From Escherichia coli (GTDB lineage Bacteria; Pseudomonadota; Gammaproteobacteria; Enterobacterales; Enterobacteriaceae), in NCBI RefSeq assembly GCF_044647545.1, contig NZ_CP172818.1: DNA of 64,000 nt; one strand, 5' to 3'. Below the pieces are notes generated by a model, which saw nothing but the letters and a program-made list of their open reading frames with translations, searched no databases and had not been told where the DNA came from. Of the stretch, positions 3,124 to 64,000 are shown one piece after another. How positions within the stretch are numbered: position 1 is the stretch's first letter; every line of letters begins with the position of its first letter. The translations under genes and the position numbers were made by a program.

Positions 3124-3505
3124 AACAGAGTCCTTTAAGGATATAGAATAGGGGTATAGCTACGCCAGAATATCGTATTTGATTATTGCTAGTTTTTAGT
3201 TTTGCTTAAAAATATTGTTAGTTTTATTAAATGCAAAACTAAATTATTGGTATCATGAATTTGTTGTATGATGAATAAAATATAGGGGGGTATAGATAGA
3301 CGTCATTTTCATAGGGTTATAAATGCGACTACCATGAAGTTTTTAATTGAAAGTATTGGGTTGCTGATAATTTGAGCTGTTCTATTCTTTTTAAATATCT
3401 ATATAGGTCTGTTAATGGATTTAATTTTTACAATTTTTTATGTTCAGCCATATAAAAAGAACCCGCTCTATTAAAGGCGGGTCCGGAAAGTAAACGGCTT
3501 AGCAA

Positions 3506-4795
3506 TCAATCATTAACGCTTGATATCGCTTTTAAAGTCGCGTTTTTCATACCTGTGTAAAGCTGACGCGGACGGGCAATCTTCATACCGTCACTGTGCA
3601 TTTCGCTCCAGTGGGCGATCCAGCCAACGGTACGCGCCATCGCGAAGATCACGGTGAACATAGAAGACGGAATACCCATCGCTTTCAGGATGATACCAGA
3701 GTAGAAATCGACGTTCGGGTAGAGTTTCTTCTCGATAAAGTACGGGTCGTTCAGCGCGATGTTTTCCAGCTCCATAGCCACTTCCAGCAGGTCATCTTTG
3801 GTACCCAGCTCTTTCAGCACTTCATGGCAGGTTTCACGCATTACGGTGGCGCGCGGGTCGTAATTTTTGTACACGCGGTGCCCGAAGCCCATCAGGCGGA
3901 AAGAGTCATTTTTGTCTTTCGCACGACGAACAAATTCCGGAATGTGTTTAACGGAGCTGATTTCTTCCAGCATTTTCAGCGCCGCTTCGTTAGCACCACC
4001 GTGCGCAGGTCCCCACAGTGAAGCAATACCTGCTGCGATACAGGCAAACGGGTTCGCCCCCGAAGAGCCAGCGGTACGCACGGTGGAGGTAGAGGCGTTC
4101 TGTTCATGGTCAGCGTGCAGGATCAGAATACGGTCCATAGCACGTTCCAGAATCGGATTAACTTCATACGGTTCGCACGGCGTGGAGAACATCATATTCA
4201 GGAAGTTACCGGCATAGGAGAGATCGTTGCGCGGGTAAACGAATGGCTGACCAATGGAATACTTGTAACACATCGCGGCCATGGTCGGCATTTTCGACAG
4301 CAGGCGGAACGCGGCAATTTCACGATGACGAGGATTGTTAACATCCAGCGAGTCGTGATAGAACGCCGCCAGCGCGCCGGTAATACCACACATGACTGCC
4401 ATTGGATGCGAGTCGCGACGGAAAGCATGGAACAGACGGGTAATCTGCTCGTGGATCATGGTATGACGGGTCACCGTAGTTTTAAATTCGTCATACTGTT
4501 CCTGAGTTGGTTTTTCACCATTCAGCAGGATGTAACAAACTTCCAGGTAGTTAGAATCGGTCGCCAGCTGATCGATCGGGAAACCGCGGTGCAGCAAAAT
4601 ACCTTCATCACCATCAATAAAAGTAATTTTAGATTCGCAGGATGCGGTTGAAGTGAAGCCTGGGTCAAAGGTGAACACACCTTTTGAACCGAGAGTACGG
4701 ATATCAATAACATCTTGACCCAGCGTGCCTTTCAGCACATCCAGTTCAACAGCTGTGTCCCCGTTGAGGGTGAGTTTTGCTTTTGTATCAGCCAT
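3506..4795 (-). CDS. gltA: Citrate synthase, with a 1-nt deletion frameshifting the C-terminus (429 aa here vs canonical 427 aa)
   Basis: ORF track protein matches GltA through ...RPRQLYTG, then reads [14 protein letters not shown]; canonical [16 protein letters not shown] is present in the adjacent frame. Confidence 0.93.
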
Positions 4796-24627: not shown

Positions 24628-24643
24628 ATCAGAATTCTCTTTA

Positions 24644-24678
24644 AAAATTTATGGGCCGCTTCAGGCCCATAAATTTTT
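24644..24678. terminator. Bidirectional rho-independent terminator after ybgE
   Basis: 13-bp perfect stem AAATTTATGGGCC/GGCCCATAAATTT flanked by A-run and T-run. Confidence 0.7.
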
Positions 24679-24776
24679 ACGCTCCCTTAACTTGCCCTCA
24701 TTCCCAAACCTCAATCGCGCGCGTATAGTAGCAGCGTTTAAAAGCTCTAACTTTTGTTGCATTACCGGGATGTAAA

Positions 24777-60925: not shown

Positions 60926-61667
60926 TAAACAAGCCATTGCAGCGGCATTTGGTCGGGCAGCCGCGCACTATGAGCAACATGCGGATCTACAGCGCCAGAG
61001 TGCTGACGTCTTACTGGCAATGCTCCCACAGCGTAAATACACCCACGTACTGGATGCGGGTTGTGGACCTGGCTGGATGAGCCGCCACTGGCGTGAACGT
61101 CACGCGCAGGTGACGGCGTTAGATCTCTCGCCGCCAATGCTTGTTCAGGCACGCCAGAAGGATGCCGCAGACCATTATCTGGCGGGAGATATCGAATCCC
61201 TGCCGTTAGCGACTGCAACCTTCGATCTTGCATGGAGCAATCTCGCGGTGCAGTGGTGCGGTAATTTATCCACGGCACTTCGCGAGCTGTATCGCGTGGT
61301 GCGCCCCGGAGGCGTGGTCGCGTTTACCACGCTGGTGCAGGGATCGCTCCCTGAATTACATCAGGCGTGGCAGGCGGTGGACGAGCGCCCGCATGCTAAT
61401 CGCTCTTTACCGCCAGATGAAATCGAACAGTCGCTGAACGGCCTGCATTATCAACATCATATTCAGCCCATCACGCTGTGGTTTGATGATGCGCTCAGTG
61501 CCATGCGTTCGCTGAAAGGCATCGGTGCCACGCATCTTCATGAAGGGCGCGACCCGCGGATATTAACGCGTTCGCAGTTGCAGCGATTGCAACTGGCCTG
61601 GCCACAAAAACAGGGGCGATATCCTCTGACGTATCATCTTTTTTTGGGAGTGATTGCTCGTGAGTAA
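60912..61667 (+). CDS. bioC: Malonyl-ACP O-methyltransferase
   Basis: ORF track 60873..61667; canonical start [23 protein letters not shown]; 251 aa. Confidence 0.95.
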
Positions 61668-62337
61668 ACGTTATTTTGTCACCGGAACGGATACCGAAGT
61701 GGGGAAAACCGTCGCCAGTTGTGCACTTTTACAAGCCGCAAAGGCAGCAGGCTACCGGACGGCAGGTTACAAACCGGTGGCCTCTGGCAGCGAAAAGACC
61801 CCGAAAGGCTTACGTAATAGTGACGCGCTGGCGTTACAGCGCAACAGTAGCCTGCAGCTGGATTACGCAACGGTAAATCCTTACACCTTCGCAGAACCCA
61901 CCTCGCCGCACATCATCAGCGCGCAAGAGGGCAGGCCGATAGAAGCATTGGTAATGAGCGCCGGATTACGCGCGCTTGAACAACAGGCTGACTGGGTGTT
62001 AGTGGAAGGCGCTGGCGGCTGGTTTACGCCGCTTTCTGACACTTTCACTTTTGCGGATTGGGTAACACAGGAACAACTGCCGGTGATACTGGTAGTTGGT
62101 GTGAAACTCGGCTGTATTAATCACGCGATGTTGACGGCACAGGCAATACTACACGCCGGACTGACTCTGGCGGGTTGGGTGGCGAACGATGTCACGCCTC
62201 CGGGAAAACGTCACGCTGAATATATGACCACGCTCACCCGCATGATTCCCGCTCCGCTGCTGGGCGAAATTCCCTGGCTTGCAGAAAATCCAGAAAATGC
62301 GGCAACCGGAAAGTACATCAATCTTGCCTTAATGTAG
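61660..62337 (+). CDS. bioD: Dethiobiotin synthetase
   Basis: ORF track 61654..62337; GTG start giving [17 protein letters not shown] (P-loop); 225 aa. Confidence 0.95.
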
Positions 62338-62348
62338 TCATCCTGTAC

Positions 62349-62400
62349 TTGGTTAAATTGCGAGCGAGATCGCGTCTTCGATTGACTGCAATTTAACCAA
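62349..62400. repeat. 13-bp perfect inverted repeat with 26-nt spacer downstream of bioD
   Basis: TTGGTTAAATTGC ... GCAATTTAACCAA, hand-counted. Confidence 0.6.
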
Positions 62401-62496
62401 TTAAATTCTAAAAAAATCACGAAAAAAATTTTACCTCCGCATCATGCGGTGAATGTGGGAATTGCCCAGGCGGCGGGGGATAGGGGCTGCAGACAG

Positions 62497-62519
62497 TTAT
62501 CCACTATTCCTGTGGATAA
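62497..62519. promoter_or_regulatory. Inverted pair of DnaA boxes upstream of uvrB
   Basis: TTATCCACT ... TGTGGATAA match the TTATNCACA consensus. Confidence 0.65.
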
Positions 62520-62821
62520 CCATGTGTATTAGAGTTAGAAAACACGAGGCAAGCGAGAGAATACGCGGCTTGCACGCGAATTGGCGTTAAAGACGGCTCA
62601 AAGAAATATCTTTTATTTTTTAACTGGTTAGATAATTGCAATGGCAGTCACTGAAGAGGCATCTCTTGCCATAAAACTGTCATCACTCATCTTGACAAAT
62701 GTTAAAAAAGCCGTTGCTTTGGGGATAACCCGGTAAGGCCGGAGTTTTATCTCGCCACAGAGTAAATTTTGCTCATGATTGACAGCTGAGTTTACGCTGT
62801 AACAGAAATATTATGGTGAGA

Positions 62822-62845
62822 AACTGTTTTTTTATCCAGTATAAT
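62822..62845 (+). promoter_or_regulatory. uvrB LexA box (SOS operator) overlapping a -10 element
   Basis: CTGT-N8-CCAG motif AACTGTTTTTTTATCCAGTA followed by TATAAT, about 85 bp upstream of uvrB. Confidence 0.8.
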
Positions 62846-62915
62846 TTGTTGGCATAATTAAGTACGACGAGTAAAATTACATACCTGCCCGCCCAACTCC
62901 TTCAGGTAGCGACTC

Positions 62916-64000
62916 ATGAGTAAACCGTTCAAACTGAATTCCGCTTTTAAACCTTCTGGCGATCAGCCAGAGGCGATTCGACGTCTCGAAGAGGGGCTGG
63001 AAGATGGCCTGGCGCACCAGACGTTACTTGGCGTGACTGGCTCCGGGAAAACCTTCACCATTGCCAATGTCATTGCTGACCTTCAGCGCCCTACCATGGT
63101 ACTTGCGCCCAACAAAACGCTGGCGGCCCAGCTGTATGGCGAAATGAAAGAGTTCTTCCCGGAAAACGCGGTGGAGTATTTCGTCTCCTACTACGACTAT
63201 TATCAGCCGGAAGCCTATGTACCGAGTTCCGACACCTTCATTGAGAAAGATGCCTCGGTAAACGAACATATCGAGCAGATGCGTTTGTCCGCCACCAAAG
63301 CGATGCTGGAGCGGCGTGATGTGGTTGTGGTGGCATCGGTTTCCGCGATTTATGGTCTGGGCGATCCTGATTTATATCTCAAGATGATGCTCCATCTTAC
63401 GGTCGGTATGATTATCGATCAGCGCGCGATCCTGCGTCGACTGGCGGAGCTGCAATACGCTCGTAATGATCAAGCCTTCCAGCGCGGTACTTTCCGCGTT
63501 CGTGGGGAGGTGATTGACATCTTCCCGGCAGAATCGGATGACATTGCACTTCGCGTGGAACTGTTTGACGAGGAAGTGGAACGATTGTCGTTATTTGATC
63601 CGCTCACCGGGCAGATTGTTTCCACTATTCCACGTTTTACCATCTACCCGAAAACGCACTACGTCACACCGCGCGAGCGCATTGTGCAGGCGATGGAAGA
63701 AATTAAAGAAGAACTGGCTGCCAGACGCAAGGTGCTGTTGGAAAACAACAAACTGCTGGAAGAGCAGCGGCTGACCCAGCGTACCCAGTTTGATCTGGAG
63801 ATGATGAACGAGCTGGGCTACTGTTCGGGGATTGAAAACTACTCGCGCTTCCTCTCCGGTCGTGGACCGGGTGAGCCACCGCCGACGCTGTTTGATTACC
63901 TGCCTGCCGATGGGCTGCTGGTGGTCGATGAATCTCACGTTACCATTCCGCAAATTGGCGGCATGTATCGCGGTGACCGGGCGCGTAAAGAGACGCTGGT
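62916..64000 (+). CDS. uvrB: Excinuclease ABC subunit B, 5' portion (runs off the window end)
   Basis: ATG at 62916; translation [48 protein letters not shown] stays in frame to position 64000; absent from ORF track because no stop in window. Confidence 0.95.

Follow-up and report, generated by a model that had tools for sequence, protein, structure and literature searches.

A perfect 13-bp inverted repeat lies just downstream of bioD in the 64,000-nt stretch of Escherichia coli DNA analyzed here (contig NZ_CP172818.1; hereafter the window), which covers the bioBFCD-uvrB region, and it raises the question of whether the repeat acts as RNA, at the end of the bio transcript, or as DNA, on the control region that follows. 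The hairpin formed by this repeat is real, selected and specific to Escherichia, and it is most likely an RNA 3′-end element of a known general kind. That it is the 3′ stem-loop of the bioBFCD mRNA, serving as a non-canonical terminator and/or as a protector of the 3′ end, is the reading that we hold with moderate confidence.

The inverted repeat and its predicted fold

The gene bioD (dethiobiotin synthase), the last of bioBFCD, occupies positions 61660–62337 of the + strand, as judged from its ORF, its translation and the annotation of K-12 and other E. coli, and ends with a TAG stop codon at 62335–62337. The left (5′) arm of the repeat, TTGGTTAAATTGC, lies at 62349–62361 and the right (3′) arm, GCAATTTAACCAA, at 62388–62400. 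Read from the window, the arms are exact reverse complements 26 nt apart, as a reading made from the sequence alone had described them, and their distance from bioD had likewise been given correctly, with 11 nt between the stop and the repeat, which begins at the 12th base. If one mismatch is allowed, the pairing of the arms reaches 16 nt (62346–62361 with 62388–62403). The 26-nt spacer (62362–62387) has a conserved 5′ half, GAGCGAGATCGCG, with a GATC at 62368–62371, and a variable 3′ half, TCTTCGATTGACT. The right arm is followed by an A/T-rich tail, TTAAATTCTAAAAAAATCACGAAAAAAATTTTACC (62401–62435), which would give a weak U-tract in RNA and which includes a phased A/T tract, conserved in part in the other genera of the family. 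In K-12 the hairpin corresponds to NC_000913.3 812959–813010, and the K-12 record annotates nothing between bioD (which ends at 812947) and uvrB (which starts at 813526).

Perfect inverted repeats of at least 13 bp with a spacer of 3–40 nt occur at two loci in the window, compared with a mean of 0.01 in 100 simulated 64-kb sequences drawn from a first-order Markov model, so the repeat after bioD is not the product of chance. The other locus, at 24642–24679 (TAAAAATTTATGGGCC...), pairs over ~16 bp around a 6-nt loop and looks like an intrinsic terminator.

RNA fold prediction, which had been put forward as a check, gives a stable structure on both strands: the 52-mer is predicted to fold at −20.1 kcal/mol (z −4.7) on the + strand and at −20.3 kcal/mol (z −5.2) on the − strand. 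As single-stranded DNA the same 52-mer folds at −14.1 kcal/mol (z −5.4). Adding 100 nt of bioD from upstream leaves the stem intact in both the MFE and the centroid structures, and the sub-hairpins in the spacer are small and predicted with low confidence. A competing pairing between 62279–62290 in the bioD coding sequence and 62380–62391 was considered, and it did not displace the stem in a 201-nt fold. A small hairpin further on, CCGCATCATGCGG (62439–62451), was rejected as a second terminator, given its place in the highly variable segment 62435–62456 and the loss of its pairing across the Escherichia alignment.

Canonical intrinsic terminators possess a G+C-rich stem of ~5–14 bp, a loop of 3–8 nt and a U-rich tract immediately 3′. 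The hairpin resembles this class in its position 11 nt past the last stop of the operon, on the transcribed strand, and in having a stable stem with a partly U-rich stretch behind it, but it differs in that the stem is A/U-rich (4/13 pairs are G-C), the 'loop' is 26 nt long and the U-tract, UUAAAUUCU, is interrupted. The view that this is not a simple intrinsic terminator therefore holds, and the hairpin was also left unflagged by a consensus scan. A strong T-run is indeed absent after the stem, TTAAATTCTAAAAAAATCACG having at most 4 T per 8-nt window starting 0–2 nt downstream. The tail TTAAATTC, with 4 T in 8, scores −2.09 against −5.13 for an ideal T-run, and the hairpin that the scan does flag in Salmonella reaches only −2.19; taken alone, the tail is borderline rather than disqualifying for a terminator. 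The hairpin is also like the 3′ stabilizing stem-loops of Rho-terminated or processed mRNAs, being a hairpin at the end of an operon with no good U-tract. Dar and Sorek reportedly described in 2018 E. coli Rho-dependent transcripts in which a hairpin forms a barrier to 3′-to-5′ exonucleases.

Repeated and mobile elements were tried as further candidates. Unlike REP elements, which are G+C-rich and present in hundreds of copies, the hairpin is A/T-rich and single-copy, and a REP/BIME or other dispersed repeat was rejected on finding one place per genome in 5424 genomes. A mobile element or MITE was rejected as well, since the plasmid and phage matches are only chromosome fragments and bio-transducing phages, and the region is colinear across genera with no insertion. 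A search of Rfam gave no match at the hairpin, and within 61600–63000 the only hit at E ≤ 10 was speF at 62636–62698, with 12.1 bits against a gathering threshold of 37.

The DARS1 and uvrBp3 setting

The repeat had been described as facing the uvrB control region, and it does lie on the uvrB side, but a DnaA-box scan and the literature place two nearer neighbors there, DARS1 (DnaA-reactivating sequence 1) and the promoter uvrBp3. The promoters uvrBp1 and uvrBp2 and the LexA box are near uvrB, and uvrBp3 is further upstream, overlapping DARS1 (PMC6015884). As located by the DnaA-box scan, the DARS1 core spans 62497–62531, overlapping uvrBp3, with DnaA box I at 62497–62505 (+ strand), box II at 62511–62519 (− strand, perfect consensus) and box III at 62523–62531 (− strand). 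Between the stem and box I lie 96 nt, so that box I begins 97 bp beyond the final base of the stem. The terminator scan flags GTTATCCACTATTCCTGTGGATAAC at 62496–62520, a false positive formed by the head-to-head DnaA boxes I and II. No DnaA box (TTATNCACA at ≤1 mismatch) was found in 62338–62496.

DARS1 has been described as a 101-bp element consisting of the core and a ~50-bp stimulatory flank (PMC5742627), with the flank placed after the last box, at 'bases 198–239' (PMC4585315). If base 198 follows box III, base 1 would fall at the bioD stop and the minimal DARS1 would span roughly 62474–62574, so that the hairpin would occupy bases 14–65, outside the minimal element. Membership of DARS1 was rejected, as the hairpin ends at 62400, before the boxes at 62497–62531, and contains no DnaA box. 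The hairpin is like DARS1 in that both lie in the same intergenic region, are removed by the same deletion and are conserved in all E. coli, but it is unlike DARS1 in that its arms are found only in Escherichia whereas the DARS1 core is family-wide, and the stimulatory flank is on the far side, after box III.

The primer homology used for the DARS1 deletion stops at ...GTAGCCATTCTGTATT, exactly the 5′ edge of the hairpin, and the deletion allele runs from that edge to the uvrBp2 LexA box (PMC4585315); the 'uvrBp3' reporter fragment covers −567 to −280 (PMC6015884). The hairpin is inside both, and the DARS1 or uvrBp3 phenotypes obtained from these constructs could include a contribution from it. 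Induced transcription across DARS1 abolishes its activity, and native DARS1 is transcribed at a very low level (PMC5010248). The hairpin is the only obvious barrier from the biotin-regulated operon to DARS1 and uvrBp3.

Conservation within Escherichia and across the Enterobacteriaceae

The 161 nt around the hairpin were matched once each in 5424 of 5426 complete E. coli genomes, and the hairpin was single-copy in the 5424 by megablast and by sensitive blastn alike. The window differs from K-12 at 11 of these 161 positions, none of which is inside the 52-nt hairpin (P = 0.012). In the most divergent E. coli classes the changes fall in the spacer or the flanks, or consist of a C>T at the 3′-most base of the left arm, and a common divergent class carries a C>T at the top of the stem that gives a U.G pair on the + strand.

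The 3′ end of bioD occurs as two E. coli haplotypes, one reading ...ATCAATCTTGCCTTAATGTAG (INLALM), as in the window, and the other ...ATAAACCTTGCCTTGTTGTAG (INLALL), as in K-12. The differences between them fall in 62300–62348 and 62401–62460, with the hairpin between invariant, and the existence of the two haplotypes accounts for the 4098 of the 5424 matching records that are only 90–95% identical over the 161 nt. The segment downstream of bioD is also present, at 96–97% identity, in the phage records ON470605.1 (2011–2113) and MF374379.1 (28467–28568), one of which is annotated as a transduced bio locus.

The hairpin is kept in the other Escherichia species and clades sampled (L008–L013), including E. 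albertii and E. whittamii. In an alignment of 12 Escherichia sequences, variable columns make up 4/13 of the left arm and 2/13 of the right arm, compared with 10/11 of the 5′ flank, 10/13 of the spacer 3′ half and 17/22 of the segment 62435–62456; the corresponding counts are 4/13 for the spacer 5′ half and 2/35 for the DARS1 core. Taken together, the arms (6/26) are less variable than the three adjacent segments that are apparently unconstrained (37/46; Fisher P = 3e-6), and less variable than the remainder of the alignment between the bioD stop and box I (65/133; P = 0.018). In Escherichia, purifying selection therefore acts on the arms.

Beyond the genus, 80 bioD loci aligned on DARS1 box I were compared. 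In most of these loci the DARS1 core precedes uvrB by ~420 nt, and the ~150 bp upstream of DARS1 are homologous across all of the loci, whatever adjoins beyond. The 3′ part of the left arm, AAATTGC, overlaps a block that is conserved family-wide, and the right arm, which is Escherichia-specific, is without a counterpart outside the genus, other genera reading GTTAGCTGATAA... at the aligned position. On the evidence of this alignment, the 13-bp pairing is an Escherichia innovation, made partly from older sequence.

Most genera carry a lone convergent gene between bioD and DARS1, encoding a 257-aa UrtE-like ABC ATPase (203 bits, against a cut-off of 285.8), that Escherichia, Salmonella, some Citrobacter and Intestinirhabdus lack. 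The gene overlaps the 3′ end of bioD and is located in the stretch between the bioD stop and ~280 nt upstream of box I (for example, 3165–3938 on the − strand in L028); it is carried by L016, L018, L019, L022–L064 and others, and in L020 it is apparently partly deleted. Strong structure is predicted for the aligned segment in Escherichia (z −3 to −5, L008 excepted), but none beyond expectation in the 53 lineages with the ABC-ATPase gene in place (mean z −0.47); the gene-less group and the gene-keeping lineages differ with a Mann-Whitney P of 0.015–0.028, uncorrected for phylogeny. Among the other gene-less lineages, Salmonella possesses at the equivalent position an unrelated canonical terminator, in which TGTTCTCT follows an 8-bp GC-rich hairpin 24 nt past its bioD stop and which is flagged by the terminator scan, and Intestinirhabdus possesses a hairpin of −32.6 kcal/mol directly 3′ of bioD. 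In the gene-less Citrobacter lineages structure is weak here (z 0 to −1.3).

The spacer had earlier been treated as a separator only, and it does separate the arms, but the family alignment reveals that its 5′ half is itself part of an ancient conserved palindrome. In E. coli this is the degenerate GATC palindrome AAATTGCGAGCGAGATCGCGTC (62355–62376; TGCGA-N6-TCGCG), which overlaps the end of the left arm and the spacer 5′ half and aligns with a family palindrome of consensus AAAATGTGAGCAAGATCTCATC (TGTGA-N6-TCTCA). It sits 137–139 nt upstream of DARS1 box I across the Enterobacteriaceae, at homologous positions in L014–L071. Like CRP sites, the palindrome has a consensus, AAATGTGAGCAAGATCTCAT, that matches the 22-bp CRP consensus at 17/22 positions by hand count (AAAATGTGAGCAAGATCTCATC needs a one-base shift), and the E. 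coli copy matches it at ~14/22, also counted by hand. Unlike CRP sites, the E. coli copy has the central T/A of each half-site changed, the variant of E. coli and Citrobacter being TGCGA...TC(G/T)CG. The palindrome resembles a CRP site, and this likeness belongs to the spacer palindrome and not to the 13-bp arms. It could regulate the ABC-ATPase gene, uvrBp3 or DARS1, and we know of no reported function for a GATC palindrome upstream of DARS1.

Two more stretches between the palindrome and box I are conserved family-wide, namely the A/T tract at 62417–62434 (E. coli CGAAAAAAATTTTAC, other genera AGCGATAAWWTTTTTTT) and the block GGGAATTTGCC(A/G)GGCGGC. Their conservation suggests that the functional neighborhood of DARS1 reaches ~150 bp leftward beyond the 101-bp minimal element described in the literature. 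A further short block, (G/A)TGGTGCA, is found to the left of the CRP-like palindrome, ~150–165 nt upstream of box I, in genera that keep the ABC-ATPase gene (for example, L028, L023 and L037), and is absent from E. coli.

Strand, transcript and competing explanations

Across the Escherichia alignment, 97.9% of the stem cells are paired on the + strand (7 G.U, 3 unpaired), compared with 93.7% on the − strand (1 G.U, 9 unpaired). The predicted folds of other Escherichia go the same way, with −20.6 kcal/mol on the + strand versus −12.4 on the − strand in E. albertii, −12.8 versus −7.9 in L008 and −23.7 versus −20.6 in L009. G.U wobble accounts for the variation of three stem pairs on the + strand, and no pair is changed on both sides, the divergence sampled being shallow; approximately four independent wobble events on the + strand stand against one (binomial P = 0.19), and plain stem mismatches occur in two lineages, L010 and L012. 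Most of the arm substitutions keep the pairing of + strand RNA yet break the dyad symmetry of the DNA, which is modest evidence for a structure in the bio transcript, since such a pattern would not be expected of a palindrome bound by protein, of a cruciform or of an RNA from the − strand.

Of the two possibilities that the sequence-only reading had offered, a palindrome bound by protein and an RNA structure closing the bio operon, the second is favored, in the form of + strand RNA, by the selection on the arms, the G.U bias and the terminator of Salmonella. The first gained no positive support, as the half-site does not recur in the window more often than chance allows, the arms are confined to Escherichia and neither a BirA nor a DnaA match was found.

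As the 3′ stem-loop of the bioBFCD mRNA, the hairpin would form once the polymerase has passed the bioD stop, the nascent RNA folding into a 13-bp A/U-rich stem around 26 nt at ~−20 kcal/mol, and the stem-loop would set the 3′ end of the bio mRNA. It might do so through weak, non-canonical or factor-assisted termination at the UUAAAUUCU tract, or, alone or jointly, by blocking 3′-to-5′ exonucleases that trim from a more distal end, and the bio operon, which is derepressed at low biotin, would thereby be kept out of DARS1 and uvrBp3. We infer the 3′ end at the hairpin, the choice between termination and protection, and the insulation of DARS1 from the non-random and stable repeat, its conservation, the wobble bias on the + strand, the analogues in Salmonella and Intestinirhabdus, the mapped transcript units and the inactivation of DARS1 by transcription. 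The reading is weakened by the failure of the 3′-end data sets described below to show an end here, the poor prospects for Rho loading downstream, the departures from a canonical terminator, the lack of any double compensatory change, the lineages with mismatches, the weak structure in Citrobacter and the read-through implied by a preprint.

With regard to the transcript itself, SMRT-Cappable-seq recovered an operon of b0775, b0776, b0777 and b0778 from a TSS at 809301, and a separate uvrB unit from a TSS at 813495 (PMC6131387 supplement); full-length transcripts from the bioB promoter are thus reported to take in bioB to bioD but to stop short of uvrB. The same data set, in which at least 10 reads per site were required, calls no termination site near K-12 812,9xx–813,0xx (PMC6131387), and neither the Term-seq supplement of Adams 2021 nor the TRS supplement has a bioD entry. 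A re-analysis preprint infers a transcription unit with bioBFCD and uvrB, implying some read-through. Downstream of the stem, the + strand RNA passes from A/U-rich to G-rich sequence and, not being rich in C, would probably be a poor loading site for Rho.

The arms, with or without the GATC palindrome, might instead act at the DNA level by binding a regulator or nucleoid protein that acts on DARS1 or uvrBp3, which we consider unlikely. Such a site would agree with the conservation of the arms in Escherichia, with the presence of the hairpin within the 'uvrBp3' reporter and the in vivo DARS1 deletions, with the family-wide CRP-like palindrome in the spacer 5′ half at a fixed distance to DARS1, and with the A/T-rich character of the region and its phased A-tracts. 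The arms are absent, however, outside Escherichia, where DARS1 and its flanking blocks stay conserved, and their changes break the DNA dyad while sparing the pairing of + strand RNA. The half-sites are also 39 bp apart center to center, which would be unusual for a dimeric regulator. Recurrence of the half-site, proposed earlier as a check, was not borne out, since at ≤2 mismatches the window has five matches, both arms included, against 2.3 expected. No DnaA-box match was found, and a BirA operator, suggested by the comparison of GGTTAAAT with GGTTTACA, was rejected because a search for TGTAAACC-N16-GGTTTACA at ≤3 mismatches matches only the true bioO at 58656–58687. Moreover, the 101-bp minimal DARS1 would exclude the hairpin at the position deduced above (PMC5742627), and in the literature searched the bioD/uvrB spacer is mentioned only in RNA polymerase holoenzyme SELEX papers.

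The hairpin could also be a functionless relic, a rearranged old promoter or regulatory region that has persisted by inertia after loss of the ABC-ATPase gene. The derivation of the left arm and spacer from pre-existing conserved sequence fits this, as does the finding that Citrobacter lineages with the same gene loss have no comparable hairpin. It is made quite unlikely by the low variability of the arms next to the adjacent non-coding sequence (6/26 versus 37/46, P = 3e-6), by arms that are essentially fixed in ~5400 E. coli genomes between flanks that carry two haplotypes, and by the very low probability that a perfect 13-bp repeat arises by chance.

An RNA hairpin on the − strand, stopping or stabilizing an antisense transcript from the region upstream of DARS1 and uvrB toward bioD, seems improbable. 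The E. coli sequence folds equally well on that strand (−20.3 kcal/mol), where a C-rich stretch and two U7 runs precede the stem, and in other genera the region lies upstream of a − strand gene. In the other Escherichia, though, the substitutions give A.C mismatches and large losses of folding energy on the − strand, the − strand tail, GUACAGGAUGAC, is essentially without a U-tract (score −0.57), and no − strand promoter-like site was found in 62338–62800.

A DNA cruciform or slipped structure affecting supercoiling or replication near DARS1 is exceedingly improbable, for although the palindrome is perfect and folds well as single-stranded DNA (−14.1 kcal/mol, z −5.4), and although the function of DARS is reportedly sensitive to local chromosomal context (PMC5010248), the substitutions degrade its symmetry and extrusion would be kinetically very unfavorable with a 26-nt central spacer.

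The comparison of genera points to a regulatory region that had a new upstream neighbor after gene loss and that gained a hairpin in one genus. A more far-reaching version of the insulation, to which we give very little credence, is that the hairpin is a deliberately leaky insulator that couples biotin supply to the cell cycle through read-through into DARS1. Scarce biotin would then lead to read-through into DARS1, 97 bp downstream, to less regeneration of ATP-DnaA and so to delayed initiation. If this were true, biotin, and hence fatty-acid and membrane synthesis, would be tied to replication initiation, and the appearance of the arms in Escherichia alone after gene loss would represent evolutionary tuning of the coupling. 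Read as the 3′ stem-loop of the bioBFCD mRNA, the hairpin would be a fairly ordinary operon-end element, non-canonical and unannotated in the RefSeq records examined, and it is its position next to DARS1 that gives it weight.
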